Part shown: in pieces, positions 14,327 to 31,928 of the stretch | How the letters are laid out: the number at the start of each line of letters is the position of its first letter | How positions within the stretch are numbered: position 1 is the stretch's first letter | Source of the DNA: Spirochaetia bacterium | GTDB lineage: Bacteria > Spirochaetota > Spirochaetia > UBA9216 | Length of the DNA: 64,000 bases | Reading direction: 5' to 3' | Assembly (NCBI GenBank): GCA_963675665.1 | Contig: OY776510.1 | Span: 1,536,001-1,600,000 of the forward strand | Made by a program: the position numbers and the translations under genes | Notes under the pieces: model-generated | What the model was told of the DNA's origin: nothing | Seen by the model: only the letters and a program-made list of their open reading frames with translations | Database searches by the model: none

Positions 14327-14362
14327 TTGACAATTTAAGATTATATTGTTATAACAATATAA
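14327..14362 (+). promoter_or_regulatory. Sigma70 promoter overlapped by a perfect 22-bp palindromic operator
   Basis: TTGACA (14327), N17, TATAAC (14350). Palindrome TTATATTGTTATAACAATATAA at 14341-14362. Confidence 0.8.
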
Positions 14363-14517
14363 TAAATAGGCAGGCGGCATCATTCGAATGCAGCCGCGGA
14401 AAGTTATATACCGTTGTTATTAAATAAGCTTGATATTAAGGCCGTTTCGTTTAGGTTGAGTTTATAAAAAGAAAGCACCGGCAAAACAGGAACTGTTAAA
14501 AAGGAACAAGTGAAAAC

Positions 14518-15720
14518 ATGATCGACACAAAACGATTACAAACTATTAAAAAAATATATCACCGTGTTTTGGAAAAAGATGTAATTCCTTTTTGGCTGCA
14601 AAATTCTCTCGATGAGAAAAACGGCGGTTACTATAATTATCTGGATAGGGATGGAGAAGTTTTAAGCAGGGATAAATCAGTCTGGCTTCAGAATCGCGAA
14701 ATGTGGTTTTTCTCAAAGATTTATAATGAGATTGAACACCGTGAAGATTGGAAAGATGCGGCGGCTCTTGGATATAACTTTATCGGGAAACATTGTTTGG
14801 ATAACGACGGAAGAATGTTTTTTCTGGTAGATGAACAGGGCCGTAAACTTCGCAAGAGGCGCTATTGGCTGACTGATACTTTTGCAGTTCTCGGGTTTAG
14901 TCAGTATTCAGTTGCGTCAGGAGACTATAAGGCTCTCAGGGCGGCACGGCGTTCTTTTGATAAAATTATTGACTTGTATGAGAAACCGGAAGGTTTGGAG
15001 CCGAAGTTTTTTATTGAAAACAGATCTATGAAAGCATTAGTTGCACCAATGCTATTGATGTCGACTGCCCAGGAAATCAGGCAAGTTGATAAAGACTATA
15101 CTGAAAAATATAACAAAGTGATTGATACCTGCATCTGTGAAGTGAAAAATAATTTTTATAAAAAAGAAGAAGGTGCTTTGCTTGAGACAGTGTTGTCTGA
15201 TGGGCAGATTTTAAATAATCCTGAAGGAAGAATTGTAAACCCGGGACACTCTATTGAGACATCATGGTTTCTGATGAATGAAGCTTTATACAGAAAAGAT
15301 AAAGATCTTTTTTATTTGGCTCTGGAGATTCTAAATTGTTCCTATGAAAGAGGCTGGGATAACGAGTATGGCGGAATCCTGACTTTCACTGATCTTTGGG
15401 GAAAACCAAGCCCAAGGCTGGAGTGGGATATGAAATTCTGGTGGACACATACCGAAAGTCTGTTTGCCATGCTGCTTGCTTATATAGCAACACAGGATGA
15501 TTCATATCTGGCTAAATATGAGAAATTACACAAGTGGACTTTCGATTATTTTCCTGATTGTGAATATGGTGAATGGTTCGGGTACCTGCACAGAGATGGC
15601 AGCATTTCTTCTCAGATTAAGGGTTCAGAATGGAAAGGGACACTGCATTTACCCAGACTGTTATTAAACGGAATTAATTGTATTGATAATTATTCTCAGA
15701 TAGGTGCCATATTCGGTTGA
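14518..15720 (+). CDS. N-acylglucosamine 2-epimerase (AGE) family protein 1
   Basis: PFW...S.D...GGY, KSVWLQNR, NPGHSIE, KFWWTHTE, GEWFGYLHRDG, KGSEWKG.LH.PR. Confidence 0.92.
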   Translation: MIDTKRLQTIKKIYHRVLEKDVIPFWLQNSLDEKNGGYYNYLDRDGEVLSRDKSVWLQNREMWFFSKIYNEIEHREDWKDAAALGYNFIGKHCLDNDGRMFFLVDEQGRKLRKRRYWLTDTFAVLGFSQYSVASGDYKALRAARRSFDKIIDLYEKPEGLEPKFFIENRSMKALVAPMLLMSTAQEIRQVDKDYTEKYNKVIDTCICEVKNNFYKKEEGALLETVLSDGQILNNPEGRIVNPGHSIETSWFLMNEALYRKDKDLFYLALEILNCSYERGWDNEYGGILTFTDLWGKPSPRLEWDMKFWWTHTESLFAMLLAYIATQDDSYLAKYEKLHKWTFDYFPDCEYGEWFGYLHRDGSISSQIKGSEWKGTLHLPRLLLNGINCIDNYSQIGAIFG

Positions 15721-15836
15721 TTTCATGATTTGGCGGCGGATTGTCGGGGAGTATTATCAAGTGACATAACAAGCCTGTTGCTTGAAAGATCAGAGCTTGT
15801 AAAAAACTGATAGATAAGGGGTATTTTTAAGTTGAT

Positions 15837-15926
15837 TAAGAACGTTCTTACCATGTGTCAATAATATGATATCGAAAATAGTTAAATAGATATTAGATAT
15901 AGAAATAAAATATAAGAACGTTAATG
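15837..15926. promoter_or_regulatory. Pair of LacI-type operators
   Basis: Perfect palindrome TAAGAACGTTCTTA (15837-15850) and partial copy TAAGAACGTTAATG (15913-15926), upstream of the pfkB-lacI unit. Confidence 0.7.
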
Positions 15927-15973
15927 TTCAAGTGATTTAGGAGTACGTCTTTTATAATGTGTCGGGAGGACTT

Positions 15974-16864
15974 GTGAATAAGGTTTTAGTTTTCGGGATG
16001 GTGTTGTTTGACTCGATAAACGGGAAAAACTACATTGGGGGTCCGCCTCTCAATGTAACATTGCATATGGCCAGACAGGGCTTTCCTTCAATATTTATTT
16101 CTTCTGTTGGTAATGATGAGCTTGGAGTAATTGCAAAGTCCGTGTTGAAGGAAGAAGGGGTTTCTGCAGAATACGTAAAGACCGATTTACATGAAACAGG
16201 CAAGGCTGTTGCAGTTATCGATGATAATGGAATTCCTGCTTTCAATATAAAAAAGGATGTGGCCTACGATTATATTACCCTGGAGAAGGAAGAACTGGAT
16301 CGTTTATCCCATGAATATTTTGATATGCTTTACTTTGGAACAGTTGAACAACGTGGTGCGGTAACATCGGAAACATTGAAGAAAATACTGAGTCGAGTGA
16401 AGTTTAAGAATATATTCTACGATATCAATTTAAGGAAAGGGCATTTTACCCGGGAGGTTATAGATTTCTCTTTAAATAATACCAGTATTTTCAAGTTGAA
16501 TGATGAAGAAGTGATGATGCTGGATCGGATATTCGGTCTGGACCTGAATGATGAAAAAAGAATTGTTGATTGGTTATTTAATACTTATAGCATCGATGTC
16601 ATAGTTATTACCAGGGGAAGGCAGGGCGCCAGTGTTTTTACGCGTATATCTATACACGACATAGATGGAATTAAAATTGAAGTTAAAGATACAGTGGGTT
16701 CTGGAGATGCATTTTCTGCCGGTTTCATTACAGAATATCTGAAAAGCGGTGATGTGGTTGCAGCAGCTAAAAAAGGTAATGGACTCGGTGCATATGTTGC
16801 CGCGCACTCCGGGGCTGTACCGGGGTTGGAAAAGAGTAAAACAAAAGCGAAGGTAGCGAAATGA
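15974..16864 (+). CDS. PfkB-family carbohydrate kinase (fructokinase-like)
   Basis: GGPPLNV, DINLR, and DTVGSGDAFSAGF signature. GTG start after GGGAGG. Confidence 0.92.
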   Translation: MNKVLVFGMVLFDSINGKNYIGGPPLNVTLHMARQGFPSIFISSVGNDELGVIAKSVLKEEGVSAEYVKTDLHETGKAVAVIDDNGIPAFNIKKDVAYDYITLEKEELDRLSHEYFDMLYFGTVEQRGAVTSETLKKILSRVKFKNIFYDINLRKGHFTREVIDFSLNNTSIFKLNDEEVMMLDRIFGLDLNDEKRIVDWLFNTYSIDVIVITRGRQGASVFTRISIHDIDGIKIEVKDTVGSGDAFSAGFITEYLKSGDVVAAAKKGNGLGAYVAAHSGAVPGLEKSKTKAKVAK

Positions 16865-17889
16865 CTACCATAATGGATGTTGAGACCAGGAGCGGTGTTT
16901 CCCGTTCAACCATATCCCGATATCTGAACGGCAAGCCGGTGACAAGTCAAAATCGGCAAAAGATAGAACAGGCTATAAAAGAACTTTCATACCGGCGCAA
17001 TCCCATGGCGAGTGGTCTTAAGACAAGCAAGACATATACTGTAGGTGTAGTATTGCCGGAGATCACCGACCCTTATTTTCCAAGACTTGTAAAATATTTT
17101 CAAAATTATATGCATGAAAACGGGTATCAGACTATTTTTAACAGTTACGGCAACGATCCTGAACTTGAAATTGAACATGTAAAAACCCTGGCAAACAAGC
17201 GTGTGGACGGGCTTGTTGTGGCTACCATAAACAGGAAAGGAAATCATATCAGGGAGTGCCTGGATGCCGGATTGCCGGTGGTACTGTTTGACAGGCTTAT
17301 AGAAGGGTTGGATTGCGACAGTGTAACGGTAGATAACTACCAGGCAGTATACGACGCGATTTCCCTGTGTATACGAAAGGGCCACCGGAAAATCGGTTTT
17401 GTAGGTGGTTCGGAATACTACACAGATATAACAAGGTTTCGGGGGCTTTGTGATGCGTTGGGAAATGCAGGGATAAGTCTCCGGGAAGAATATATCAACT
17501 TCGCAAATATTTTGGAGCATGATGCTACCCGTCAGTTTATGCGACTGATGACTCTCACAGACCCGCCGACGCTGATTTTTTGCTCAAATATCTATCATGC
17601 ATTGGGAGCCTTTGAAGCGATGCTGCAGTACGATCTTGTGATTCCCCGGGATGTATCCGTTATTACTTTCGACAGACTTTCGGCCTCTCCTTATTACGGT
17701 TTTATACAGTGCATACATCCCGAATTTGCGAGTATTTGTCAGCCGCACAAAGAGCTCAGTTTGCAAACGGCAAAGACGCTGTTGAAAAGAATCCAATTCG
17801 GTATGGATAATTTCGAACCCATGCGACTCGAACTGAAGACAAGTTTTTATATGACCGAATCTGTTGCAGATATCAAGGAAGATTCATGA
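16861..17889 (+). CDS. LacI-family transcriptional regulator
   Basis: TIMDV...SGVSRSTISRYLNG HTH, YRRNPMA hinge, sugar-binding domain (IPRDVSVITFD). Confidence 0.93.
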   Translation: MTTIMDVETRSGVSRSTISRYLNGKPVTSQNRQKIEQAIKELSYRRNPMASGLKTSKTYTVGVVLPEITDPYFPRLVKYFQNYMHENGYQTIFNSYGNDPELEIEHVKTLANKRVDGLVVATINRKGNHIRECLDAGLPVVLFDRLIEGLDCDSVTVDNYQAVYDAISLCIRKGHRKIGFVGGSEYYTDITRFRGLCDALGNAGISLREEYINFANILEHDATRQFMRLMTLTDPPTLIFCSNIYHALGAFEAMLQYDLVIPRDVSVITFDRLSASPYYGFIQCIHPEFASICQPHKELSLQTAKTLLKRIQFGMDNFEPMRLELKTSFYMTESVADIKEDS

Positions 17890-17979
17890 TTTATGTGAGA
17901 AAAACAAAAGGGTAAATGAAAAAGGATTTGACTCTCATAGAGAGATGGTAACTTAAATTGAAAATTTGGAGGATTATTA

Positions 17980-18729
17980 ATGATTAAAATTTTGTATGCA
18001 GGCGATTATGCCTTGATATCGCACACGTACATCAAGGGTATGAATTCATGGACTTCGGGAGAAGCGTTTGATGAGCGGAACTTCCTGCTTGAACCGATGA
18101 AAGCGGACACTGAACTTGAGATCAATTATCTACCGACACCTTATATTTCGAAAGATTTTCCCTGCACAAAGGAAGAGCTTGGCAAATACGATGTTGTTAT
18201 GATCAGCGATGTCGGTACGGATACGTTGCTGCTTTACCCGGATATATTCAAGATACCGATGGGTGAGAACAGGTTAAAGCTTATTTCTGAATATGTGAAA
18301 GAAGGCGGCGGTTTTATGGCGGTCGGCGGATGGATGTCGTTCGGCGGGAAAATGGGTCAGGGCAAGTTTCACGGAACACTGTTGGAAGACGTGTTAAATA
18401 TCAACTGCAGTCCCTACGATGACCGCGTGGAAGTGCCTGAAGGATTAAAGTACAACCCAGTCAAAGCTGAGCACCCTCTGATCGAAGGTATGGATTGGGA
18501 TAAATCTCCGTTACTGTTTCTCGGGTATAACCAATTTGAAGCTAGAGACAAGGACGGTGTTATTGCAGAATGGAACGGCGACCCGATGATGGTTGTTAAT
18601 AAATACGGAAAAGGCAGAACTCTGGCATTTGCATCAGATCTTGCACCTCATTGGGGCCAGGGATTTGTCGAATGGGATAATTATACAAGGTTCTGGAGCA
18701 AGTGCTTCAGATGGCTTGCAAACAGGTGA
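17980..18729 (+). CDS. DUF1355 / glutamine amidotransferase-like protein 1
   Basis: FP...EEL..YDVV.ISDVG..TLLL, GGGF.A.GG.MSF, DDRVE.PEG, GYN and SD.APHW motifs. Confidence 0.85.
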   Translation: MIKILYAGDYALISHTYIKGMNSWTSGEAFDERNFLLEPMKADTELEINYLPTPYISKDFPCTKEELGKYDVVMISDVGTDTLLLYPDIFKIPMGENRLKLISEYVKEGGGFMAVGGWMSFGGKMGQGKFHGTLLEDVLNINCSPYDDRVEVPEGLKYNPVKAEHPLIEGMDWDKSPLLFLGYNQFEARDKDGVIAEWNGDPMMVVNKYGKGRTLAFASDLAPHWGQGFVEWDNYTRFWSKCFRWLANR

Positions 18730-18763
18730 AAGAGATAAAATATGGTTTTTGGAGGTTCTTTAG

Positions 18764-19954
18764 ATGAAGCTTGAAAGAGTGAAAGAATTATATGATATAT
18801 ATCGGCGGGATCTATTTGAAGATGTATTGCCGTTCTGGACAAAGTATTCTATCGACCATGAGTACGGAGGATACCATCATTACCTTGATTGCGACGGAAA
18901 GCTGATCAGTGCGGAAAAATCAGGAATACTGAACAGCAGGCAATTGTGGACATATTCATATCTGTATAACAATTTTGGAAACAAGCAGGAATGGCTCGAT
19001 ATCGCGAAAGCCGGCTACGACTTTTTTATAAAGCATTTCATAGATTATGACGGAAGGATTTTCTTTCAGGTAACACGCGACGGCAGGCCTCTTCGAAAAA
19101 GAAGATACTGGATTGCAGAAACCTTCGCCATTTCCGCGCTGGCGGAATATTCCAAAGCTGCAGGCAGCGCAGAGGCACTACAGAAAGCGCGGGACACATT
19201 CAATCTGGTACTGTATCTGATAGAGCATCCTGACCAATTGGAGCCCAAGTTTAATCCGCAGACGCGTCCCATGATTGGCCATGTAGGCCCAATGCTGTTA
19301 ATCAATTCCGCCCAGACTATGAGGGATATCGATCCGGAAAATGCCGGTTTGTACAACGATACTATTGATCGCATGCACAATCTGATTATGGAACATCTGG
19401 TCAAGCCGGCGTATAAAGCTGTGTTTGAAGTTGTCGGGGGCAACGGAGAGGTTATGGATGACACGCCGTTGGGAAGATGTATCTCGCCGGGACACGGTAT
19501 TGTGAATGCCTGGATTGTGCTGCTTGAAGGACAATATAGAAAAGATCAAAAAATGATTCGGACCGGGCTTGATATGCTGGACTGGTCTTTGGAGATCGGT
19601 TGGGATAAGGAGTTTGGAGGCTTACTCTATTTTGTTGATCTGAAAGGGCTTCCAACTGATCAATCGAACTACCAGATGAAATATTGGTGGCCTCACAACG
19701 AAGCCATGTATGCACTTCTGCTTGCTGATGATCTTACGAATGATGGTAAATATGAAAAATGGTACGGGAAAGTTCATGAGTGGTCATATAAGCATTTTAA
19801 AGATAATGAAAACGGCGAATGGTTCGGTTATCTGAACAGAGACGGCAGCATAAATCTTCCGGTTAAAGGCGGCGACTGGAAAGGTTCGTTCCATACGACA
19901 CGTATGTATATGTACGGGTTGCAGTTGTTGGAGAAGATGAAAGCTGCCGGTTAA
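18764..19954 (+). CDS. AGE-family protein 2 (diverged active-site motifs)
   Basis: LPFW..YSID.EYGGY, SPGHG, KYWWPHNE, GEWFGYLNRDG, KGGDWKGSFH. Confidence 0.9.
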   Translation: MKLERVKELYDIYRRDLFEDVLPFWTKYSIDHEYGGYHHYLDCDGKLISAEKSGILNSRQLWTYSYLYNNFGNKQEWLDIAKAGYDFFIKHFIDYDGRIFFQVTRDGRPLRKRRYWIAETFAISALAEYSKAAGSAEALQKARDTFNLVLYLIEHPDQLEPKFNPQTRPMIGHVGPMLLINSAQTMRDIDPENAGLYNDTIDRMHNLIMEHLVKPAYKAVFEVVGGNGEVMDDTPLGRCISPGHGIVNAWIVLLEGQYRKDQKMIRTGLDMLDWSLEIGWDKEFGGLLYFVDLKGLPTDQSNYQMKYWWPHNEAMYALLLADDLTNDGKYEKWYGKVHEWSYKHFKDNENGEWFGYLNRDGSINLPVKGGDWKGSFHTTRMYMYGLQLLEKMKAAG

Positions 19955-20028
19955 TAAACAGGTTCATGGGTGATCGGGTAATTACCCGGTCTGATTTTTA
20001 TAGAGATCAAATATATAGGGAGTAAATA

Positions 20029-20775
20029 ATGAAAGTATTATTAGTTGGAGAATCATGGTCTGGAGCAGATCAGCATACCAAGGGTTTTGATGTCGTAACT
20101 CTGGGATCTTTCAAATTCAACTGGGGCAAGCCTTATATTGATGCTGTAAGAGCGAGCGGAATTGAGTTGGAACATATGTACTGTCATATCGCGCAAAGCG
20201 ATTTTCCGATCGAACTGAAAGAGCTTCAGAAATATGATGTGGTTATTTTCAGCGATGTAGGAAGTAACACTCTTCTGCTTGATCCGGTAATGCAGTGGGA
20301 AGGTGTGCCGCGACCGAACCGCCTGAAACTGCTTGTTGAATATATCCGGCAAGGGGGAGGATTTATCATGTTCGGTGGTTGGGTCAGTTTTGCGGGATTC
20401 GAGAATAAAGCAAGGTATGCCATGACGCCGTTGGCGGAAGCGCTTCCTGTTGAGATCCTGAATTATGATGATCGGATCGAAGAGCCGGCAGGTGTTGTAC
20501 CGGAAATGGTGATAAAGGAACATCCTGTTCTGAATGGTGTCGAAGAGAAATGGCCGAGCTATCTTGGCTACAATAAATTGAAGACAAAGGCCGATGCACA
20601 GGAAATTGCTACGATCGGCGGAAGCTCCTTTATGGCCGGAATGGAATTTGGAAAAGGCCGTTCTTTTACGTTCGCAACTGACTGTGTTGGGCACTGGGGC
20701 TACGAAATGACTCAATGGAACAGCTACTCAAAGCTTATGTCCAATATGATTCGGTGGGTTGCTGGAGAAGTGTAG
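20029..20775 (+). CDS. DUF1355 / glutamine amidotransferase-like protein 2
   Basis: MKVLLVGESW...H.KGFD, FP....EL..YDVVIFSDVGSNTLLL, GGGFIMFGGWVSF, TD...HW. Confidence 0.88.
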   Translation: MKVLLVGESWSGADQHTKGFDVVTLGSFKFNWGKPYIDAVRASGIELEHMYCHIAQSDFPIELKELQKYDVVIFSDVGSNTLLLDPVMQWEGVPRPNRLKLLVEYIRQGGGFIMFGGWVSFAGFENKARYAMTPLAEALPVEILNYDDRIEEPAGVVPEMVIKEHPVLNGVEEKWPSYLGYNKLKTKADAQEIATIGGSSFMAGMEFGKGRSFTFATDCVGHWGYEMTQWNSYSKLMSNMIRWVAGEV

Positions 20776-20928
20776 TTAAATTATAAGCAATAAGCTGTTG
20801 TTTGCGGCAATGCCGATAAATATTTCCGAGTAGAAGGAGCTGAATTATAAAAAGAAGGAGGGAAATGAACTTTAGAGTTATAAGAAAATATATTTAAAAA
20901 AGAGGCTATAAAATCAGGAGGATAAAAG

Positions 20929-21879
20929 ATGAAGATTGTATTTGTAATTTTTTTAAGTTTAGTTGTTGCGATGGGAGCCGTGGCCTCCGGGAATTCAGAG
21001 GAAGCTGCTGATGATGGAATGATGAAGCTGGGTGCAATTGTGCAGAATTCGGCAAATGAGTCTCAAGCTTATTGGCAGAAACTTTTCACAAAGCATGCAG
21101 CAGATTACGGGTTTAAATGCACTCAGTATGACGGTAAAGGTGATGCGACGGTTCAGAGTGCGGCAGTAAGAGACTGTATCGCTCAGGAGATGGACGCGAT
21201 TCTGATCTGCACCTGTGATCAGGCGGCGGTTACACCCGCACTCACAGAAGCCGTATCTGCCGGCGTTGTGGTAGGCCTGCTGAATGCCACTATCACACCG
21301 ATGGGTAAAGAGAACTACACCTTCTATGTAGGTGTCGATGACGTTCTTGCCGGTCAGGCTGCCGGAAAGGCATTTATTGAACACTTTCCGAATGGAGCAA
21401 AAATTGTAGAAATCGGCGGAGGTGCTGGTTCGTCTCCGGCACTCAATCGGCATGATGGTTTTGCCCAGGGAATTGCAGGAAGCAATATCGAGGTTATCGA
21501 GTATCAGGCATGCTCTGATTGGATCGCGAACGAAGCGATGGGTATTATGGAAAACATGATTGTTAAATACGGAGATCAGATAGAGGGTGTATTCTGCCAT
21601 TGGGATAACGGTGCCACAACAATTATTCAGGCGCTGCAGGCTGCCAACATGAATGATGTTTATATCATCGGAGTCGACGGGTGCCGTGCCGGATTTGACC
21701 AGGTTAGAGACGGTACGCAGGCTGTTACGATCATGCAGAATTTCGACAAGATGATTCCGCAGGCAATTGAAGACGCGATGAAAGCTGTCAAGGGTGAGTC
21801 GTTTCCGAATCCCGATCTTGTTGAATGGGATGTTGTAACAATCGACAACATCGACGATTTCCTTTATCCGCAGTGGTAA
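20929..21879 (+). CDS. Sugar ABC transporter substrate-binding protein
   Basis: Signal peptide ending ...VASGNSE; RbsB-like fold (DGKGD...Q, VYIIGVDG). Confidence 0.9.
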   Translation: MKIVFVIFLSLVVAMGAVASGNSEEAADDGMMKLGAIVQNSANESQAYWQKLFTKHAADYGFKCTQYDGKGDATVQSAAVRDCIAQEMDAILICTCDQAAVTPALTEAVSAGVVVGLLNATITPMGKENYTFYVGVDDVLAGQAAGKAFIEHFPNGAKIVEIGGGAGSSPALNRHDGFAQGIAGSNIEVIEYQACSDWIANEAMGIMENMIVKYGDQIEGVFCHWDNGATTIIQALQAANMNDVYIIGVDGCRAGFDQVRDGTQAVTIMQNFDKMIPQAIEDAMKAVKGESFPNPDLVEWDVVTIDNIDDFLYPQW

Positions 21880-24411: not shown

Positions 24412-24428
24412 TACGGAGATGTGAAAAT

Positions 24429-25403
24429 ATGAATATTGGAATAAAACTTAAAAAAATATTGCTTGAATACCTGGTGCTGGTCTTTATTGTACTTCTCGTA
24501 ATAGTTACTGTCATTGTGGAACCGAAATTTATGACGGGCCCGAACCTCAGCAATATAATGCGTCAGTTCGGACCATTGAGTTTCGTTGCTCTCGGTATGA
24601 CTTTTGTAATTATCGGCGGTTATATAGATCTGTCGGTGACAGGGATCATTTCTCTTGTAACTGTCATAACAGTATCGCTTATCGATCCGATAGGCCAGAT
24701 TCCGGCATTGATTGTAGGGCTTGTGATAGGAGCGGGAGCAGGATTAATAAATGGTCTTTTATTGATAGCAGGGGGAGCTAATACGCAGGCTAAAGCACTG
24801 TTCATCACTTATGGTATGAGTTCGCTTTATGGAGCGCTTGCATTGATGTATACAGGGGGAGCAACCGCTCATATGAGCTGGCTTGAAACTTCTCAAACGG
24901 TGTTTACGGCTATCGGATCGGGGAACGTGGGATTTCTTTCCGTATCGTTCATCGTGTTCCTGGCATGTCTTTTTGTGCTTTATGTCTTTTTAAACAATAC
25001 GCATGAAGGCAGGGCGATACATGTTCTGGGTGGAAACAAGGTTGCAGGAGAGCTGTCCGGAGTTCCGGTGAAACGCAGCCTTGTATTGATATATATGTTA
25101 TGCGGTTTTATGTCGGCAGTCGGCGCTGTAGTATTGTTTTCAAGAACAACAATGGCTATGCCGGCCTGCGGTAAAGGGTATGAGGTCAATGCAATACTGG
25201 CCGTAGTTGTTGGAGGGACGAGTCTTAAAGGAGGCAACGGCAGTGTCCTGCGTACGGTGCTGGGTGTTCTGTTAGTGACGTTGATGGCCAATTGTCTCGA
25301 CCTGTTGAGGGTATCCACATACTACCAAACAGTATTTAAAGGTTTGATCCTTGTGCTTGCTATCTGGCTTGATAACCGGAATAAACAGCAGGGAGGGGAA
25401 TGA
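24429..25403 (+). CDS. Sugar ABC permease
   Basis: GMTFVII.G.IDLSV, AI.AVVVGGTSL.GG.G. Confidence 0.93.
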   Translation: MNIGIKLKKILLEYLVLVFIVLLVIVTVIVEPKFMTGPNLSNIMRQFGPLSFVALGMTFVIIGGYIDLSVTGIISLVTVITVSLIDPIGQIPALIVGLVIGAGAGLINGLLLIAGGANTQAKALFITYGMSSLYGALALMYTGGATAHMSWLETSQTVFTAIGSGNVGFLSVSFIVFLACLFVLYVFLNNTHEGRAIHVLGGNKVAGELSGVPVKRSLVLIYMLCGFMSAVGAVVLFSRTTMAMPACGKGYEVNAILAVVVGGTSLKGGNGSVLRTVLGVLLVTLMANCLDLLRVSTYYQTVFKGLILVLAIWLDNRNKQQGGE

Positions 25404-25404
25404 T

Positions 25405-26373
25405 ATGAACAATATACATATGATTGGCCGGAAAGTTTTAAAAATCTCTACAAAACAAAAAGCAGTGGTAGCGATTTTCTTAATGATGATATTTATGATT
25501 TTCCCGGATACGAAATTCTATTCAACCTATAACCTGATAAATCTGATTCGATCGACGTCAGTGCTTGAAATCATAGCATTTGGTGTTACGTTGACTATAA
25601 TTTGCGGTGGAGTCGACCTGTCTGTAGGCGGAATGGTATCGCTCTCAGGGATTCTTACCATAAAACTTATGAATTATATGCCTATAGTTCCTGCTATTCT
25701 ATGCGCAGTACTGGTTGGGGCTGTCGTGGGTTTTATTAACGGATTTCTTTCCGTGCATCAGAAAACTGAGCCTTTTATTATAACATTGGGTATGGGAATG
25801 CTTCTTAAGGGTATAAGTCTGGTTATGTCGGATGCTCACCCGGTTCCCTGTATGAATCCGATGTTTGTGAAAATATCGAATGGATTCCTGTTTGGTAGTA
25901 TTCCAAATATAGTCGTATATATGTTAGTGCTTCTTGTGGCTACATACTCCCTGTTGAGGTATACAAGGTTTGGAAGGAACTGTTATGCAATAGGAGGCGA
26001 TTATAGTGTGGCCGCATATTCGGGTATCAATGTTATCTGGACTAAATGGGCTACCTTTATTCTAAGCGGAATGTTCGCTGCGCTTGCCGGAGTATTATTA
26101 GCCTCAGAGATGAATACAGGTTCTCCTAATTATGGAGATGCAATTCCTCTTTTGGTTTGTTGCGGTGTTGTAGTAGGCGGTACTTCTTTCTCGGGTGGTG
26201 TGGGAGGAGCATTTCAGAGCTTTTTCGGTTTGCTTGTTATTCAATTACTCACAACCTGTATGAATATGTTAGGAGTCGGGGCTTATCCGCAGCAGGCTTT
26301 TCAGGGAATTGTTATTGTAATGATTATCTGGATGGACTGTTTTGCGGACAAGCGAAAACGAGAGGCTGTGTGA
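25405..26373 (+). CDS. Sugar ABC permease
   Basis: G.TL.II.GGVDLSVG, PFIITLG, VVVGGTSF.GG. Start at ATG 25405. Confidence 0.93.
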   Translation: MNNIHMIGRKVLKISTKQKAVVAIFLMMIFMIFPDTKFYSTYNLINLIRSTSVLEIIAFGVTLTIICGGVDLSVGGMVSLSGILTIKLMNYMPIVPAILCAVLVGAVVGFINGFLSVHQKTEPFIITLGMGMLLKGISLVMSDAHPVPCMNPMFVKISNGFLFGSIPNIVVYMLVLLVATYSLLRYTRFGRNCYAIGGDYSVAAYSGINVIWTKWATFILSGMFAALAGVLLASEMNTGSPNYGDAIPLLVCCGVVVGGTSFSGGVGGAFQSFFGLLVIQLLTTCMNMLGVGAYPQQAFQGIVIVMIIWMDCFADKRKREAV

Positions 26374-26449
26374 CAGAATTATCTGTTACGGTATATTTCG
26401 GGGAGCTATGAAAATAAATATAGCTTATTAAATATTTGGAGGACTATTA

Positions 26450-27001
26450 ATGAACTTGGAATCAACACTAACAAAATGGACAAAGGAAGAATTACAAAAG
26501 AAGGCGTATGATTTGGCCCATACATATGAACACGAATGTGCTTATTGTCCGCAGGCAACAATTGCAGCTCTTATGGATGTTTTTCAAATAAAAGATGATG
26601 ATCTGTTCAGATCGGCTTATGGATTTCATGGAGGCGCCGGAGACCGTGGTATCGGTACTTGCGGAGCTTTATGCGCCGGTATTTTAATTATCAGTTATTT
26701 ATACGGAAGAAACAAAACAGAATTTAATTTTGGAAAGGCAAATCGAAGGGCGACAGATTTAGCCGGAAAACTTGTTGATGAATTTAAAAAAGAATTTGAA
26801 GGAATTACATGCAACGAAGTGCAGGAGAAAATGTTCGGCCGATCTTTTAATAATTATGACGAAGAAGAAGTCAAGCTTTTTCTTGAAGAGGGCGGACATA
26901 CTGAGAAATGCCCTATAGTTACCGGACGGGGAGCTGCTTTGGCCGCCGGTATTATTTGGGAGGAATTGGAGAAAGAATTATTTGGGTTGGATATTGAATA
27001 A
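26450..27001 (+). CDS. C_GCAxxG_C_C-family putative redox-active protein
   Basis: YCPQA, GFHGG.G, GTCGALCAG, ITC and EKC cysteine pattern. Confidence 0.85.
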   Translation: MNLESTLTKWTKEELQKKAYDLAHTYEHECAYCPQATIAALMDVFQIKDDDLFRSAYGFHGGAGDRGIGTCGALCAGILIISYLYGRNKTEFNFGKANRRATDLAGKLVDEFKKEFEGITCNEVQEKMFGRSFNNYDEEEVKLFLEEGGHTEKCPIVTGRGAALAAGIIWEELEKELFGLDIE

Positions 27002-27021
27002 AATAAAGAATTAATTTTTAA

Positions 27022-27063
27022 GCCGAGAGTTTACAGGATGCCTTTTAACTTGAAACTCCCGGC
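27022..27063 (+). terminator. Hairpin ending the ABC/redox unit
   Basis: GCCGAGAGTTT...AAACTCCCGGC imperfect stem. Confidence 0.45.
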
Positions 27064-27178
27064 ACATAAACTGATTTTTCGGATTTAACAACCGGGTTTT
27101 ATCATCTATTGATTAATTAAAACAGTTGTAAATGCGGAAACTCGCTGCTGGATAGAAATGTAAACAGGAGGCATATTC

Positions 27179-27457
27179 ATGAAAACTGGACTTGTAAATA
27201 CAATTTCAGCTGATTACAGACTGGATGAACTATTGAATGTCGCTGCTGATGCTGAGAGAAAGCATACCGATGGTATGCAAATCGAGGAGGGCCGCACTGA
27301 CGGATCTGAGGGAATAGAGAGTTCAGGATTAAACTATTTTTCGAATACTTTAATGGAAGGTCCGGTTCAAAGAGAGTTTTTAATATTCTATACAAAAATG
27401 ACAATAGACGGCACATTGATACAGAACAAATATAACACAATATACGGGATAGGATAA
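27179..27457 (+). pseudogene. Short ORF, possibly a remnant of a sugar-phosphate isomerase/epimerase (xylose-isomerase-like TIM barrel)
   Basis: Strong AGGAGG RBS. The N-terminus MKTGLVNTISADYRLDELLNVAADA resembles that family's first beta-alpha unit, but the ORF is only 92 aa. Confidence 0.4.
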
Positions 27458-28170
27458 TGGAACTGCAGGAAATAGCCGATATGATTGATCACTCTCTTTT
27501 GCGACCGGAGCTTACAACTGCAGAGATAGTCGAGGGGTGCAGGCTTGCTGATAAATATCATTGCGTCTCAATATGCTGCAGACCTTCCGATGTTAAGTTG
27601 TGTACAGAAGTTCTCCGGGATTCCAAAACCATAGTAACAACAGTTATAGGTTTTCCTCACGGCAGCAGTCTGACCGGAATAAAGGTTCTTGAGGCTGAGA
27701 CAGCATGCAGAGACGGTGCTGTTGAGCTTGATATGGTAATAAATATAGGCAGACTGTTGTCCGGGGATTATGAGTATGTAGAAAATGATATCAGAGCTGT
27801 TGCCGAGGCTGCTAAAAAATACGATGCAATTATAAAAGTAATACTTGAAAATTGCTATCTGGATGATGAACACAAGCGCATAGCCTGCAGACTTAGTGAA
27901 AAAGCCGGTGCTGCATTCGTAAAGACTTCAACAGGTTTTGGAAAACCAGCTGATGGACGGGCTACAGGAGCTACTCTGGATGATTTAAGGCTCATGCGGG
28001 AGGAATGCAGTTCTTCTGTAAAAATTAAAGCTGCAGGTGGAGTGCGCAGTTTAACCGAAATGTTGGAAGTAAAAGCAGCCGGAGCAGACAGGGCCGGTGC
28101 AACGGCCACAAAATCGATAATGGAGGAGGCAAAGCAAAGAGAACTTGAGGGAAAGCTGGAAATTGTATAG
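27457..28170 (+). CDS. deoC: Deoxyribose-phosphate aldolase family
   Basis: IDHSLL, VIGFPHG, ELDMVINIG, KVILE, VKTSTGF, KAAGGVR. Confidence 0.92.
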   Translation: MELQEIADMIDHSLLRPELTTAEIVEGCRLADKYHCVSICCRPSDVKLCTEVLRDSKTIVTTVIGFPHGSSLTGIKVLEAETACRDGAVELDMVINIGRLLSGDYEYVENDIRAVAEAAKKYDAIIKVILENCYLDDEHKRIACRLSEKAGAAFVKTSTGFGKPADGRATGATLDDLRLMREECSSSVKIKAAGGVRSLTEMLEVKAAGADRAGATATKSIMEEAKQRELEGKLEIV

Positions 28171-28200
28171 ATTGTAACCTGGATGAAATAAGGATATGTT

Positions 28201-28959
28201 ATGGAGAAAATAGATTACAATTCAGGAATGCCGCTTTATCTTCAATTGAAAGATATAATAAAAAAACAGATTATGGCAGGCCATTATTCGCCTGGAGTAA
28301 AGATTCCAACAGAAGAAGAATACTGTAAAAAGTATGATATCAGCCGTATTACTGTGCGGCAGGCGATCAACTACCTTGTACAGGAAAAGCTTCTGATTAG
28401 AAAGCAGGGAAAAGGAACCTTTGTAGCTTCGGCAAAGATGAAAAAGCACCTGCCTAAATTGTACAGTTTTACTGAAGACATGATTGCAGAAGGACGAACT
28501 CCTGATTCGATTATTATGAACAGCTCTGTTATGGATGCAGATGAAGAGATTGCAGGAATACTTGAATTGCCGGAAAGCAATAAAAAGGTTTTTAAGCTTT
28601 GCCGTGTGAGGCGGGCAGATGAGGTTCCGATTCTTTACGAAACCACCTATATACCTGATTATCTTTGTCCGGAACTCGGCAGGTTCGATTTTTCACAGGT
28701 GTCTTTATATAAGGTTCTTCAGCAGGAATATGAATTAATTTTTAAATATGCGGAGGAGAGATATGAGGCTTCTCTTTTAAATAAGGAAACTGCGGTTATT
28801 CTTGAAACTGCAATGAACGATCCGGCGTTTAATATATATCGTGTGGCATTTCTGGAAGACAGCCGACCGTATGAGCTGACATATGCAACCGGAAAAGGCG
28901 ATTCATTGAGTTTTACAGTTACTCTGGTTCCTGAAACAAAAATAAAACGCAATTATTAG
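28201..28959 (+). CDS. GntR-family regulator (HutC/UTRA)
   Basis: PLYLQL...I..G.Y.PG.KIPTE...ISRITVRQA...GKGTFV followed by a UTRA domain. Confidence 0.93.
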   Translation: MEKIDYNSGMPLYLQLKDIIKKQIMAGHYSPGVKIPTEEEYCKKYDISRITVRQAINYLVQEKLLIRKQGKGTFVASAKMKKHLPKLYSFTEDMIAEGRTPDSIIMNSSVMDADEEIAGILELPESNKKVFKLCRVRRADEVPILYETTYIPDYLCPELGRFDFSQVSLYKVLQQEYELIFKYAEERYEASLLNKETAVILETAMNDPAFNIYRVAFLEDSRPYELTYATGKGDSLSFTVTLVPETKIKRNY

Positions 28960-28978
28960 GAGTTTTTTTAATTGGTTC

Positions 28979-28994
28979 TAATATTATAACATTA
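28979..28994. promoter_or_regulatory. Second copy of the TTATAACA-core operator, upstream of the SDR operon
   Basis: TAATATTATAACATTA, a near palindrome related to 14341-14362. Confidence 0.55.
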
Positions 28995-29030
28995 TATAGA
29001 TATATTATAATAAGGGCGTACAGGTTTTTT

Positions 29031-29879
29031 ATGAAGACAAATATATTTGAATTAAAAGGACAAACTGCGGTCGTTACCGGGGCCGGCGGAGAACTGGCCG
29101 GAGCAATATCAATCGGGCTGGCTGAATTGGGTGTAAAGGTAGCTGTTCTTGATATAAATAAAGACAAAGCTGAGAACTGCACGGATAAAATAAAGGCCGG
29201 CGGGGGATTTGCAAAAGCCTATGTCTGTGACGTACTCGATGCCGGTCAATTAAAGGAAGTTTATTCTGAAATAAAAAAAGACTGGGGTACTCCGGGGCTG
29301 CTTTTAAACGGTGCGGGCGGTAATCATCCCATGGCAACTACAGATAACGAGTTCCTTGAGCGTGAAGATTTGAATAATGAAGAGTTAACCCGGATTTTTT
29401 TTAATCTTGATATGAAAGGTGTTGAGGCAACATTTGCGTTAAATTTCTACGGCACATTTCTTCCTTCCCAGATTTTCAGCAGGGGAATGATTGAGAACGG
29501 CAGGGGATCAATTGTAAATATCTCATCAATGAACGCCTTTACTCCACTGACGAAAATTCCTGCATATTCCGCCGCAAAATCATCCGTATCAAATTTTACA
29601 AGGTGGCTGGCTGTGCACTTTTCGCATGCGGGAGTCAGGGTTAATGCAATTGCTCCAGGTTTTTTTATGACGGAACAATTACGTTTTTTACATATTGATC
29701 AGCAAACAGGTGAATATACGCCAAGAGCAAAAAAAGTTGTTGAGCATACACCGATGGGTCGTTATGGAGAACCGGAAGAGCTGCTGGGAACAGCTGTATG
29801 GCTTTTTTCGGAAGCTTCAAGCTTTGTAACCGGGGCTGTGATCCCGGTAGACGGCGGCTTTTCTTCGTATGCTATTTAA
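29031..29879 (+). CDS. SDR oxidoreductase, UxuB-like (mannonate/fructuronate reductase type)
   Basis: NGAGGNHP.ATT, NISSMNAFTPLTKIPAYSAAK, VNAIAPGFF. Confidence 0.85.
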   Translation: MKTNIFELKGQTAVVTGAGGELAGAISIGLAELGVKVAVLDINKDKAENCTDKIKAGGGFAKAYVCDVLDAGQLKEVYSEIKKDWGTPGLLLNGAGGNHPMATTDNEFLEREDLNNEELTRIFFNLDMKGVEATFALNFYGTFLPSQIFSRGMIENGRGSIVNISSMNAFTPLTKIPAYSAAKSSVSNFTRWLAVHFSHAGVRVNAIAPGFFMTEQLRFLHIDQQTGEYTPRAKKVVEHTPMGRYGEPEELLGTAVWLFSEASSFVTGAVIPVDGGFSSYAI

Positions 29880-29889
29880 GGAGAAGACA

Positions 29890-30744
29890 GTGAGTGAGAC
29901 TGAATATACAGTACCGAATGAACTGCCGGTAAAAAAAGCAAAGATAGATTTAAGCGGGCAGAAAGCTGTTATAACAGGGGCAAGTAAAGGTATTGGCTCT
30001 GCTATAGCGTTAGAGTTGGCGGAAAGCGGGGCGGATGTTCTTATAAATTACTATTCGGACAAGACCGGCGCTGAAGAGGCTGCCGATCTTGTGGAAGCAA
30101 CGGGACAGAAGGCTCTTCTATTCAAGGCTGATGTATCAGACGAACAGAATGTAATTGATATGTTCGCCGCCTGTAAAAGAGAATTCGGAAGAGTCGATAT
30201 CTGTATTCCCAACTCAGGCATCCAGAGAAATGCGCCCTTTGCTGAAATGACGCTGCAGGAATGGCAAAGGGTAATCGATGTGAATTTGACAGGTCAGTTT
30301 CTTGTATCCCGGGAAGCAGTAAAAATGTTTCTTGATCAGGGGATAAACAGCAAGATCTCGTATTCAGCAGGCAAAATTGTATATATGAGCTCGGTTCATG
30401 ATGTAATTCCCTGGGAAGGCCATGTAAATTATGCAACAGCCAAAGGCGGTATTATGCTTATGATGAAATCAGTAGCACAGGAGCTGGCCCACAAACGAAT
30501 CAGGGTTAATTCTGTTTCGCCCGGTGCGTGCAGAACTCCAATGAATGTGGAGAAGTTGACAAGTCCCGAGGAATTTGAAAATACCCTGCTGCGGCTGATA
30601 CCCTATAAAAGAATTGGTGAGCCGGAAGATGTTGCAAGAGCTGTAGCATGGCTGGCTTCTGATTCCTCTGATTATGTTAACGGTTCAACAATTTACGTGG
30701 ACGGCGGAATGTGTCTTTATCCCGGATTTATCGGAGGAGGTTGA
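29890..30744 (+). CDS. SDR oxidoreductase, glucose 1-dehydrogenase-like
   Basis: TGASKGIG, SSVHDVIPW.GHVNYATAKGG, IP..RIGEPED. GTG start after AAGGAG. Confidence 0.85.
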   Translation: MSETEYTVPNELPVKKAKIDLSGQKAVITGASKGIGSAIALELAESGADVLINYYSDKTGAEEAADLVEATGQKALLFKADVSDEQNVIDMFAACKREFGRVDICIPNSGIQRNAPFAEMTLQEWQRVIDVNLTGQFLVSREAVKMFLDQGINSKISYSAGKIVYMSSVHDVIPWEGHVNYATAKGGIMLMMKSVAQELAHKRIRVNSVSPGACRTPMNVEKLTSPEEFENTLLRLIPYKRIGEPEDVARAVAWLASDSSDYVNGSTIYVDGGMCLYPGFIGGG

Positions 30745-30746
30745 GA

Positions 30747-31928
30747 ATGCACCTGAATGAGAAACGAATAATTACTTTCAGAAAAGAACTGGAATTAAAC
30801 GGTCTGGATGCCGTAATTGTTCAGAAGCCGGAAAATGTTCTTTTTTTAAGCGGCTTTTGGCCGATGATTGGGATGTCGGTTCTTGTCTTGCCTGTATCAG
30901 GGAAGCCTGTCTGTATAATTCCTGACTGCTATAAAAACGAAGCCGAAAGCTGCCTTTGGGAGGCTGAAGCTGTATTTTACAAATACGGGCTTCTCGACTC
31001 CCCTGATCCGGAAGAGGCTATAATAAAAATCTTGGACGCTTTAATAAATAAAAGAAGCCTGAAGAGAATCGGCCTGGAATTGACCTCCGGAGTATCCGCA
31101 GTGTCCTGGAACAGTGCTGAGTTCATCCCTCCTTTGAATTGCATAAAAGAATTTCTGTCTGAAAATGAATCAGTCTCTAATTTGATCGATATTACTCCAC
31201 TGATTCAGGAACAAAAGCTGCGAAAGACCGAATATGAGGCGGAAAAGATAAATATCGCAAATGAAGCCGCCTGCAGAGGTCTCGATGCTTTTTATAAAAA
31301 TGTGTGCCCGGGGATTTCCGGAGTGGAACTTGTCGCCGAGATTGAGAAAGCTGTTATGACAGAATCAACCGCTTCCGGCTTGAAAAGGGTACGCGCTTAT
31401 GCCCAGGTTGCTGTCGGGGCGGATGAAACAGCTTCAGCATACAGACCGAACGAGATCTCCACAAATCGAAGGCTGCTTGACGGAGAAATTGCCATGCTTG
31501 AACTTGGAGTGACAGCCGACGGTTATTGGGCGGACCGGACCAGAACTGCAGTAGCCGGAAGAAATACCCCGGAACAACTGAAGATTTTTGATATAGTGAC
31601 AGAAGCACAGGAAAGGGCCGTTTTAAAAGTCCGTGCCGGAATAATGGCTTCGGAAGTTGATGAGGCAGCAAGAGCGTATATAGTTGAAGCCGGTTACGGA
31701 AAGTATTTTCCGCATATCACCGGGCACGGCGTAGGTTTTGTTTATCATGAACCAGGGCCGTTTATCCGGCCGGGAAACAGCCAAATCCTTGAAGAAGGTA
31801 TGATCTTCTCCATAGAACCGGGTATCTATATTCCGTCTTTCGGAGGCGTAAGGATAGAAGATAATGTTCTGGTTACGTCAGACGGAAGTAAAACTCTCGG
31901 CCCGTTTAGAAAGGCTCAATCGGCTTGA
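30747..31928 (+). CDS. M24 (pita-bread fold) peptidase/amidohydrolase
   Basis: Creatinase-like N-domain, ELG...GYWAD.TRT, HITGHGVG..YHE, EPGIY, RIED. Confidence 0.88.
   Translation: MHLNEKRIITFRKELELNGLDAVIVQKPENVLFLSGFWPMIGMSVLVLPVSGKPVCIIPDCYKNEAESCLWEAEAVFYKYGLLDSPDPEEAIIKILDALINKRSLKRIGLELTSGVSAVSWNSAEFIPPLNCIKEFLSENESVSNLIDITPLIQEQKLRKTEYEAEKINIANEAACRGLDAFYKNVCPGISGVELVAEIEKAVMTESTASGLKRVRAYAQVAVGADETASAYRPNEISTNRRLLDGEIAMLELGVTADGYWADRTRTAVAGRNTPEQLKIFDIVTEAQERAVLKVRAGIMASEVDEAARAYIVEAGYGKYFPHITGHGVGFVYHEPGPFIRPGNSQILEEGMIFSIEPGIYIPSFGGVRIEDNVLVTSDGSKTLGPFRKAQSA

Follow-up and report, generated by a model that had tools for sequence, protein, structure and literature searches.

A 17.6 kb stretch of genes (positions 14,327–31,928) was analyzed within the window, i.e., the 64,000 nucleotides between positions 1,536,001 and 1,600,000 of contig OY776510.1 (assembly GCA_963675665.1), originating from a Spirochaetia bacterium of the UBA9216 lineage. 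The stretch encodes an ATP-binding cassette (ABC) importer of the CUT2 family, two proteins of the N-acylglucosamine 2-epimerase family (AGE1 and AGE2), two DUF1355 proteins, a PfkB sugar kinase, an AllA-like cupin and further enzymes, among them two short-chain dehydrogenases/reductases (SDR). A preceding interpretation, referred to as the sequence-only reading, had described these genes as one pathway for the breakdown of an N-substituted sugar. Based on the comparisons described below, a composite is on balance considered probable, consisting of a strain-specific sugar island (approximately 14.2–28.2 kb) and an adjoining conserved backbone operon (28.2–31.9 kb). Families were assigned by means of Pfam and NCBIfam profiles, and 56 open reading frames (ORFs) across the window (26 + 30) were scanned. 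Where two start coordinates are given, the second value represents the start whose exact translation is present in the protein collection. The following genes were observed:

13619–14179, minus strand: lipoprotein gene, left neighbor of the proposed island
14518–15720, plus strand: AGE1 (PF07221, 159.7 bits; gathering threshold 23.4)
15959/15974–16864, plus strand: PfkB sugar kinase (PF00294, 124 bits)
16861–17889, plus strand: LacI-family regulator (Pfam), overlapping the PfkB stop by 4 bp
17980–18729, plus strand: DUF1355a (PF07090, GATase1_like, 228.9 bits; threshold 27)
18764–19954, plus strand: AGE2 (PF07221, 163.5 bits; gathering threshold 23.4)
20029–20775, plus strand: DUF1355b (PF07090, 265.1 bits; threshold 27)
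20929–21879, plus strand: CUT2 substrate-binding lipoprotein, SBP (PF13407, 148.6 bits)
22151–22705, plus strand: AllA-like cupin (PF04115, 55.9 bits; threshold 23)
22894/22930–24411, plus strand: CUT2 ABC ATPase (Pfam, NCBIfam)
24429–25403, plus strand: permease 1 (Pfam, NCBIfam)
25405–26373, plus strand: permease 2 (Pfam, NCBIfam)
26450–27001, plus strand: C_GCAxxG_C_C putative redox protein (PF09719, 69.3 bits)
27179–27457, plus strand: orf92, without family assignment
27457–28170, plus strand: DeoC, deoxyribose-phosphate aldolase (TIGR00126, 205.7 bits; cut-off 117.3)
28201–28959, plus strand: GntR/UTRA regulator (Pfam, NCBIfam)
29031–29879, plus strand: SDR of the D-mannonate oxidoreductase subfamily (NF006132, 374 bits; cut-off 281)
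29869/29890–30744, plus strand: Gdh-like SDR (Pfam, NCBIfam)
30711/30747–31928, plus strand: M24 metallohydrolase with Creatinase_N domain (Pfam, 179.1 and 44.6 bits)

Every family named by the sequence-only reading was recovered where it had been placed. Moreover, members of the NanA, NanE, NagA, NagB and UxuA families were not detected at the Pfam level among the 56 scanned ORFs, and the locus fits no standard sialic acid, N-acetylglucosamine (GlcNAc) or hexuronate locus, but represents a sugar-utilization set with two AGE and two DUF1355 genes. The common direction of the genes was likewise observed; however, it lost its value as a sign of one pathway, since 51 of the 56 scanned ORFs are located on the plus strand, among them downstream genes without relation to the stretch (Rex, cobalamin and arabinose genes). 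Within the stretch, intergenic gaps of 238, 90, 153, 271, 188, 76 and 177 bp occur, and a terminator-like structure follows AGE2:

19972–19991, plus strand: terminator-like hairpin (eight pairs including five G-C, four-base loop) with T-run, between AGE2 and DUF1355b

The gaps and this hairpin argue for several predicted transcription units instead of one operon. An Rfam scan of the whole window returned no matches and, therefore, no riboswitch accounts for the long gaps.

In order to evaluate which genes are common to related strains, a sister genome (contig of 5,378,709 bp) was compared by exact protein look-ups and by membership in clusters at 90% identity, leaving out the MFS gene at 9960. 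All ten backbone genes tested, namely those encoding an aminotransferase (8707–9897), an MMPL protein, the lipoprotein (identical in both genomes), GntR, both SDRs, M24, Rex, CobD and AraA, have a copy in the sister genome showing 95.7–100% identity, with values of 98% for GntR, 100% for the first SDR, 98.9% for the Gdh-like SDR and 95.7% for M24. For the 14 genes from AGE1 to DeoC, no relative at ≥90% identity was found on the sister contig. The stretch was divided correspondingly:

14180..28200, plus strand: proposed accessory island of approximately 14 kb with 14 genes (AGE1–DeoC), bordered by the lipoprotein gene on the left and by GntR of the backbone on the right
28201..31928, plus strand: backbone operon encoding GntR/UTRA, the mannonate-type SDR, the Gdh-like SDR and the M24B metallohydrolase, with sister copies of all four

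Since all 14 island genes lack a sister copy while all ten tested backbone genes possess one, the simplest reading of the gene comparison is that AGE1–DeoC represents a strain-specific accessory sugar-uptake island, split from the backbone at approximately 28.2 kb. GntR-SDR-SDR-M24 is, as deduced from the same comparison, a conserved operon under its own regulator and merely a neighbor of the island. The proposal of one 17.5 kb unit is not supported on this point: GntR-SDR-SDR-M24 is found in the sister genome, whereas AGE1–DeoC is missing there altogether. Two near-identical genomes, of which only one has the 14 kb sugar island, represent a natural presence/absence pair, in which the island substrate is testable by growth comparison. 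The left end of the proposed island, comprising AGE1 and its upstream region, coincides with the G+C minimum of the window (36.6% at 14001–16000 compared to 40–50% elsewhere).

Regarding the backbone operon, the M24 protein aligns with the Pyrococcus prolidases 1wy2 and 1pv9 at E-44 and retains DxTRT, GHGVG..HE, EPG and RIED, with the first Asp replaced by Glu; the metal-ligand positions read in this alignment are those which we take to apply to the Pyrococcus prolidase. Its scores remain below the NCBIfam equivalog cut-offs (169.2 bits vs. 630 for PepQ and 139.6 vs. 393 for YpdF). The protein looks like a metal-dependent M24B hydrolase of prolidase-type rather than creatinase-type ligand pattern. 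A second M24 gene (57616–58737), whose product is 28% identical to the first, closes a group of genes at 51700–58737 composed of a CUT2 set (SBP, permease, ATPase, permease) followed by a DUF4432 protein and this M24 enzyme. Accordingly, M24 enzymes adjoin sugar ABC importers twice in the window.

Within the island, the cupin gene is located between the SBP and ABC ATPase genes, where it is bordered on both sides by decayed sequences:

21941..22048, plus strand: decayed copy of the ribosome-binding site and the first ~26 codons of the CUT2 ABC ATPase gene, upstream of the cupin gene
22741..22860, plus strand: decayed SBP 3' end in two pieces in different frames, downstream of the cupin gene

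The ABC remnant forms a local alignment of 109 nt with the intact 5' end of the ABC gene (score 88, ~78% identical), and its protein score of 73 exceeds the maximum of 47 obtained in 500 shuffles. The SBP remnant aligns with positions 21528–21583 of the SBP gene over 56 nt (score 67, ~84% identical); at the protein level, its two pieces score 67 and 60, compared to at most 40 and 41 in the shuffles. Furthermore, copies of the cupin at 91–92% identity were found on other contigs (3.84 and 3.09 Mb), and the best AGE2 relative on a 3.84 Mb contig is only 63% identical. Since the cupin gene is flanked by ABC 5' and SBP 3' remnants and its copies are distributed independently of AGE2, it is, as judged from these traces, a later, secondary insertion between the SBP and ABC genes with a history of its own.

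On all six ureidoglycolate lyase equivalog or subfamily models, the cupin reached only 26–48.4 bits against cut-offs of 160–282 (best value 48.4 vs. 212). Its predicted structure (pLDDT 88.8) matches the AllA-type folds 1yqc, 1xsq and 2bdr best, with TM-scores of 0.69–0.82 and 19–20% identity to 1yqc and 1xsq; next in the fold search of this model were sugar epimerase/isomerase cupins, including the fructose-bound sugar isomerase 3mpb and 9gyy, as well as DUF4867. In the cupin alignment, H132 is invariant, while hardly any variation occurs at E80, H82 and W131. The cupin represents a divergent and rare branch of PF04115: only eight representatives were found at E ≤ 1e-10 among 1.84 billion, and only two close homologues were found. 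A further relative, P0002, which is 75% identical, is located on a contig of 8,185 bp. In the ESM Atlas, the cupin and DUF1355b matched only their own Pfam families. For DUF4867 cupins, the available text of the corresponding study names AllA-type lyases as the nearest characterized relatives, describes metal binding via a 2His-2Glu site and locates these proteins mainly in aldose/ketose and sulfoglycolysis clusters, 434 of the 557 sequences of the largest cluster belonging to aldose/ketose clusters (PMC11968277). The same text proposes mutarotase or ring-opening functions and reports that no activity was detected (PMC11968277). An allantoin-type role for the cupin was considered and rejected in view of its low scores and the wrong gene context; allantoinase, allantoicase or related families were not found among the 56 scanned ORFs. 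A C-N lyase role for the cupin is unsupported here.

AGE1 and AGE2 were analyzed by means of models for the different branches of their superfamily. On the cellobiose epimerase model they scored 72.7 and 88.9 bits, respectively; on the mannose isomerase model, AGE1 gave no match at E ≤ 1e-5 and AGE2 only 32.4 bits. The best solved structures for AGE1 are the Pedobacter heparinus AGE 8bry (E 1.5e-101), an entry named in the accessible part of PMC13763890, and the Anabaena AGE 2gz6 (1e-91). Matches of AGE1 and AGE2 to biochemically used AGE enzymes reach E ~1e-101, whereas YihS-type isomerases match only at E ~1e-6. In alignments to 8bry, 2gz6 and 6f04, AGE1 retains the Arg, GHxxE, WWxHxE and KGxxH motifs, which we take to carry the catalytic residues of AGE. 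AGE2, which is 41% identical to AGE1, features GHxIV, in which Val replaces the Glu of GHxxE. This variant was observed only in AGE2 and its 75% identical relative P0273 from a contig of 18,194 bp, the other 15 of the 17 compared proteins, including AGE1, carrying GHxIE. In terms of sequence, AGE1 and AGE2 belong to the N-acylglucosamine 2-epimerase clade, with AGE1 as canonical member and AGE2 as divergent paralog. To our knowledge, every characterized enzyme of this clade converts N-acetylmannosamine (ManNAc) to GlcNAc. A tblastn search of AGE2 against plasmids yielded 12 records, mainly AGE genes of Bacteroidota.

Upstream of AGE1, a promoter-like site and a palindrome were recognized:

14335..14363, plus strand: promoter-like site TTAAGA, 17 nt, TATAAT
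14343–14360, plus strand: perfect 18 bp palindrome over the -10 region of this site, with a GT-N4-AC core

The core is presumably of the HutC-type GntR operator kind, and the assignment to a regulator is by inference only. The 14-mer of this palindrome has 17 matches at ≤3 mismatches (5.6 expected). Speculatively, the palindrome could represent a displaced GntR operator, provided that the island entered downstream of the promoter which GntR originally had; this idea arose because the GntR start follows the DeoC stop after only 30 bp.

The DUF1355 proteins, 35% identical to each other, represent a further component of the island, DUF1355a being located 34 bp upstream of AGE2. DUF1355b matches the structures 2gk3 (Salmonella STM3548, E 1e-56) and 3soz (STM1381, 7e-52), both of unknown function. 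A relative of DUF1355b at 88% identity, P0004, is located on a contig of 11,961 bp. The name DUF1355 was not found in the literature search, and PF07090 appeared only in the Pfam database paper. Since no invariant Cys is present in alignments of 25 and 26 DUF1355 sequences, a classical amidotransferase Cys nucleophile is unlikely for this family.

For the genomic survey, 25 DUF1355 proteins were aligned and one genome per species was scanned, resulting in at least 588 stretches encoding a relative. The 80 loci analyzed are the best matches to DUF1355b among these at least 588 (47 of the 80 being full 20 kb loci), relatives of DUF1355a not having been sampled separately. Nineteen window proteins were compared by phmmer with every ORF of ≥70 residues in the 80 loci. 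AGE, AllA-like and C_GCAxxG genes were each found in none of the 80 loci, whereas LacI and CUT2 ATPase genes were each found in 53, DeoC in two and M24 in one (weak). The AGE-DUF1355-AllA combination, whose lack of recurrence in other genomes the sequence-only reading had named as refuting its proposal, was accordingly not encountered as far as tested, none of the 80 DUF1355 loci from other species harboring an AGE or AllA-like gene. Clustering of the genes within 6 kb of DUF1355 revealed the following neighbor families (numbers of 80 loci):

CUT2 ATPase or permease: 46
ribokinase-like PfkB: 28, of which 14 within 400 bp
ArgE/DapE-type M20 deacylase: 15
PTE: 14
RihB-like nucleoside hydrolase: 9
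adenine deaminase-like: 8
BtpA/SgcQ: 7
DMT: 7
at least one of six C-N hydrolase families (M20 deacylase, PTE, nucleoside hydrolase, adenine deaminase-like, creatininase, cytidine deaminase): 36
none of the listed families: 15

Three tested DUF1355-linked PfkB genes scored 217–270 bits on the ribokinase model TIGR02152. DUF1355 is a widespread family with two solved structures, linked to CUT2 transporters and ribokinase-like kinases and without an assigned function.

Recurrent operon types of this family were observed across several phyla (e.g., L022:2574-13065, L024:8797-12800, L066:4071-12500 and L068:4920-12484). In Lachnospiraceae and other Clostridia, a BMP-type SBP, ABC, two permeases, RihB-like nucleoside hydrolase, M20, DUF1355, ribokinase-like PfkB and a further M20 are encoded together. 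Actinobacteria possess LacI, DUF1355, PfkB, PTE and DMT, i.e., the set of the Salmonella rikA locus, while Alphaproteobacteria and others combine CUT2, PTE, DUF1355, PfkB, BtpA and TenA, and Devosia combines cytidine deaminase, creatininase, adenine deaminase-like, LacI, DUF1355 and PfkB. These operons look as if they served to break down ribosyl or N-linked sugar compounds, one of the steps being unassigned. In the Bacillota loci L001:4818-8082 and L015:14967-18241, the DUF1355-CUT2 module adjoins genes for a glycyl radical enzyme and its activase; L015 also carries a DeoC-family aldolase and two ROK proteins.

The order DUF1355b-SBP-ABC-permease-permease is also present in L001, with identities of 60, 42, 73, 51 and 53% for the five gene products. 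In that locus, a mere 90 bp without any insertion separate SBP from ABC, and the neighbors of the module include the glycyl radical enzyme with its activase as well as an OYE-type reductase and a zinc-dependent alcohol dehydrogenase. Since L001 features the same gene order beside quite different enzymes, the transport module looks portable.

Concerning the importer itself, the best matches of the SBP are ribose-binding proteins (NCBIfam, PDB), all below cut-offs. The equivalog scores were 109.3 vs. 337 for RbsB, 522.9 vs. 745 for RbsA and 184.1 vs. 398 for RbsC, and the best NCBIfam match of the LacI protein is RbsR with 159.9 bits against a cut-off of 382. PfkB scored 69.2 bits on TIGR02152 (cut-off 299.65); its best NCBIfam match is a fructokinase model (90 bits, cut-off 450) and its best solved structure is 2qhp, deposited as fructokinase (E 2e-43). 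Against the ribokinase-like PfkB genes located beside DUF1355 elsewhere, it reached only 24–53 bits. The island kinase hence looks fructokinase-like and appears to belong to another subfamily than the DUF1355-linked kinases of other loci. Candidate LacI-type operators were recognized at three intergenic positions:

15838–15849: perfect 12 bp palindrome, upstream of PfkB-LacI
15914–15925: second copy with two mismatches, upstream of PfkB-LacI
22725–22736: third intergenic match, upstream of the ABC gene

This palindrome has 12 matches in the window (3.7 expected), seven of them between 14.8 and 22.8 kb. Common operators as proof of one regulon were considered and rejected: the match to the AGE1 palindrome upstream of the SDR gene (28980–28993) is too weak, and the LacI-type palindrome is convincing only upstream of PfkB-LacI.

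Further island genes encode the C_GCAxxG_C_C protein, orf92 and DeoC. Going by titles and the openings of abstracts, no paper on the function of the C_GCAxxG_C_C family was found. For orf92, a putative gene whose stop overlaps the DeoC start, no Pfam match was obtained even at E ≤ 1, and this genome is the only source of its exact sequence in the protein collection. The lipoprotein gene to the left of the island gave nothing usable in Pfam at E ≤ 1. The two DUF1355 loci with a DeoC-family gene (42% identity) are L015, where it adjoins DUF1355 and CUT2 genes, and L019, where it lies ~9 kb upstream beside another CUT2 set.

Based on these findings, a mechanism is proposed in which the scaffold of the island would be the widespread module of LacI, DUF1355 and CUT2 ABC importer, to which this lineage would have added the two AGE genes, a second DUF1355 gene, the fructokinase-like PfkB, the C_GCAxxG_C_C protein and DeoC, the cupin gene having been inserted later. 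The SBP and the ABC system would take up a hexose-type sugar, AGE1 would interconvert its gluco and manno C2 epimers, and PfkB would trap the product, or its ketose isomer, as phosphate ester. LacI may repress PfkB-LacI, and perhaps the transporter, until the sugar is present. AGE2, both DUF1355 proteins, the cupin and the redox protein would contribute accessory steps of unspecified chemistry, and DeoC an aldol cleavage. The leading guess for the substrate, still tentative and unproven, is an N-acylhexosamine, for instance ManNAc or GlcNAc. An unsubstituted manno- or fructo-hexose is somewhat less likely but conceivable, a substrate outside all the classes named here being just as conceivable, and a ribose- or deoxyribose-like sugar appears unlikely.

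Several observations weigh against the composite and the route outlined for it. The sister comparison relies on cluster membership at 90% identity and not on sister DNA, so that a diverged replacement cassette at the same site is possible; moreover, no direct or inverted repeat was detected at the island ends (no common word of ≥9 bases), and exact junctions were not found. On NF052547, AGE1 and AGE2 scored 367.2 and 328.5 bits, respectively, both under the equivalog cut-off of 600. We know of no PfkB-family GlcNAc or ManNAc kinase, a fructokinase-like kinase suits a ketose better than an N-acylhexosamine, and nagA and nagB are not present in the window. DeoC has no obvious role after an AGE step. 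In addition, DUF1355 is found elsewhere together with ribokinase-like kinases, nucleoside hydrolases and deacylases, which points to ribosyl compounds rather than hexosamines. Finally, the operator assignments are pattern matches only, and the activities and ligands proposed for the island proteins are deduced from sequence.

Three other explanations were weighed against the composite. The sequence-only reading took the 17.5 kb as one pathway for an N-acyl, N-carbamoyl or aminoacyl sugar, in which AGE, an AllA-like lyase and M24 would handle the C-N substituent and PfkB, DeoC and the SDRs would process the skeleton. The genes are indeed adjacent and co-directional, enzymes of the AGE clade act on N-acylhexosamines, and sugar kinases, transporters and C-N hydrolases are often combined in DUF1355 loci, 36 of the 80 featuring at least one C-N hydrolase family. 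However, most ORFs of this window share one direction anyway, the sister genome carries M24 and both SDRs although it lacks the island, and the cupin, a secondary insertion of independent distribution, scores far under the ureidoglycolate lyase cut-offs in a window whose scanned ORFs include no allantoin-pathway gene. The 80 DUF1355 loci likewise provided no AGE or AllA-like gene and a single weak M24. With respect to the three C-N-bond families on which the proposal was built, M24 is located outside the island and shows the prolidase pattern, and the cupin has low scores and cousins which, in the available text, occur in aldose/ketose clusters (PMC11968277), so that only AGE is left pointing to an N-acyl sugar. 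One pathway of this kind is considered very improbable. The notion of an uncharacterized sugar-utilization gene set was retained, whereas that of a single 17.5 kb N-substituted-sugar pathway found no support.

Rather unlikely, though better placed, is a locus for a plain hexose (manno, gluco or fructo), with the AGE proteins acting as aldose 2-epimerases or aldose-ketose isomerases, PfkB yielding fructose 6-phosphate or a related ketose phosphate and the cupin aiding ring opening or mutarotation. The fructokinase matches of PfkB, the altered chemistry suggested by the Glu loss in AGE2 and the sugar epimerase/isomerase cupins (3mpb, 9gyy) following AllA in the fold search of the cupin model are in line with this idea, as are the aldose/ketose context and the proposed mutarotase or ring-opening role of DUF4867 cupins in the accessible text, which nevertheless reports no detected activity (PMC11968277). 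Moreover, the scores of both AGE proteins are far higher with the N-acylglucosamine 2-epimerase model than with those for cellobiose epimerase or mannose isomerase, and YihS-type isomerases are matched only distantly (E ~1e-6). An interpretation as ribose- or deoxyribose-type locus, i.e., an rbs-like operon with DUF1355 as accessory enzyme, DeoC cleaving deoxyribose 5-phosphate and the AGE proteins as unrelated passengers, is regarded as unlikely. It would account for the Rbs proteins as best NCBIfam or PDB matches of SBP, permeases and LacI, for a DeoC above the deoC equivalog cut-off and for the company of DUF1355 in other loci (ribokinase-like PfkB in 28 of 80, RihB-like nucleoside hydrolase in 9 of 80); furthermore, Salmonella RikA, a PfkB enzyme with ribose kinase activity according to the available text, is encoded beside the DUF1355 protein STM3548 (PMC13432705). 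On the other side, all Rbs matches are far below their cut-offs (RbsB 109 bits vs. 337), PfkB does not belong to the ribokinase type (TIGR02152 score of 69 bits, and 24–53 bits in the comparison with DUF1355-linked kinases), the island encodes neither a nucleoside hydrolase nor a phosphorylase, and the spacing of 34 bp between DUF1355a and AGE2 suggests that the two work jointly.

Returning to the composite, a bolder extension, which we hold to be rather doubtful, is that DUF1355 and AGE-clade enzymes, including the GHxIV subclade of AGE2 and P0273, form an undescribed cytoplasmic route acting on a sugar derivative new as bacterial growth substrate. If true, the paired duplication (AGE1 with DUF1355a, AGE2 with DUF1355b) would provide a foothold for the DUF1355 reaction and thence for the Salmonella rikA-STM3548 locus and relatives in several phyla.

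Downstream of the backbone operon, positions 32096–36917 encode the Rex repressor followed by cobalamin nucleotide-loop genes (CobD/CbiB, aminotransferase, CobU, CobS and histidine phosphatase). Their direction is that of the 17.6 kb stretch, to which they bear no relation; Rex and CobD, at least, also occur in the sister genome. An L-arabinose region follows at 36914–49340, comprising an FGGY kinase (minus strand), a LacI-type regulator, an AraD-like class II aldolase, L-arabinose isomerase, an alpha-L-arabinofuranosidase-like gene (PF06964) and a CUT2 transporter. In total, the window contains four CUT2 systems, located in the island, in the arabinose region, at 51.7–56.5 kb and at 59.1–63.7 kb.

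Compared to known systems, the island shares individual components with several of them. In the NanLE-RokA route of Bacteroides, the AGE-type epimerase NanE-II converts ManNAc to GlcNAc; the route is named in PMC13228529. Common to both systems is a sugar catabolic locus with a cytoplasmic AGE-clade epimerase and, after it, a sugar kinase; unlike the Bacteroides route, the island uses CUT2 ABC uptake and carries two AGE paralogs, one of them with Val for Glu, and two DUF1355 genes. Sialate lyase (DHDPS/NanA), NanE and ROK families were not found among the 56 scanned ORFs. The Salmonella locus rikA (STM3547)-STM3548-STM3549-STM3550 likewise encodes a DUF1355 protein (STM3548, 2gk3) beside a PfkB kinase, and its PfkB-PTE-DMT set recurs in actinobacterial DUF1355 loci. 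Differences consist in the fructokinase-like PfkB of the island, its CUT2 instead of DMT transporter, the lack of a PTE gene and the presence of AGE genes. According to the accessible text, the Salmonella locus serves a carbon source that is not known, and what STM3548-3550 do was stated by the authors as not studied (PMC13432705). With the ribose operon rbsDACBKR, the island has in common a LacI-family repressor, the CUT2 SBP, ATPase and permease, and a PfkB kinase; however, all scores are well under the equivalog cut-offs, RbsD is missing, DUF1355 is encoded beside the transporter genes and the kinase is fructokinase-like.

In the sulfoglycolytic Embden-Meyerhof-Parnas (sulfo-EMP) pathway (YihS, YihV, YihT), the kinase YihV belongs to the PfkB family and the aldolase YihT is of the LacD type. 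The island resembles this pathway and the DUF4867 clusters, as far as described in the available text, in combining an AGE-superfamily enzyme, PfkB, an aldolase of the DeoC/LacD family and an AllA-related cupin (PMC11968277). A sulfo-EMP-like pathway was nevertheless rejected as candidate, the AGE proteins not belonging to the YihS clade (E ~1e-6) and the aldolase being a DeoC equivalog; sulfoquinovosidase and sulfolactaldehyde reductase were not seen in the window. With E. coli AllA, the cupin shares the Pfam family PF04115 and, in its predicted model, the fold (TM-score 0.69–0.82), but differs in its low identity (19–20%), sub-cut-off scores, lack of allantoin context and position as an insertion among sugar transporter genes.

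The island does not belong to any of the NanLE-RokA, rikA-STM3548, rbs and sulfo-EMP systems, and a single N-substituted-sugar pathway is unsupported. Because two of the three C-N arguments come from genes outside the unit, the locus is unfit as a template for such a pathway. Instead, it represents a mosaic sugar island which varies between strains and pairs AGE with DUF1355 in an unusual way, and it provides an unusual AGE context for DUF1355, a family with solved structures but without a function, which the 2026 RikA paper, in its available text, also leaves open (PMC13432705).

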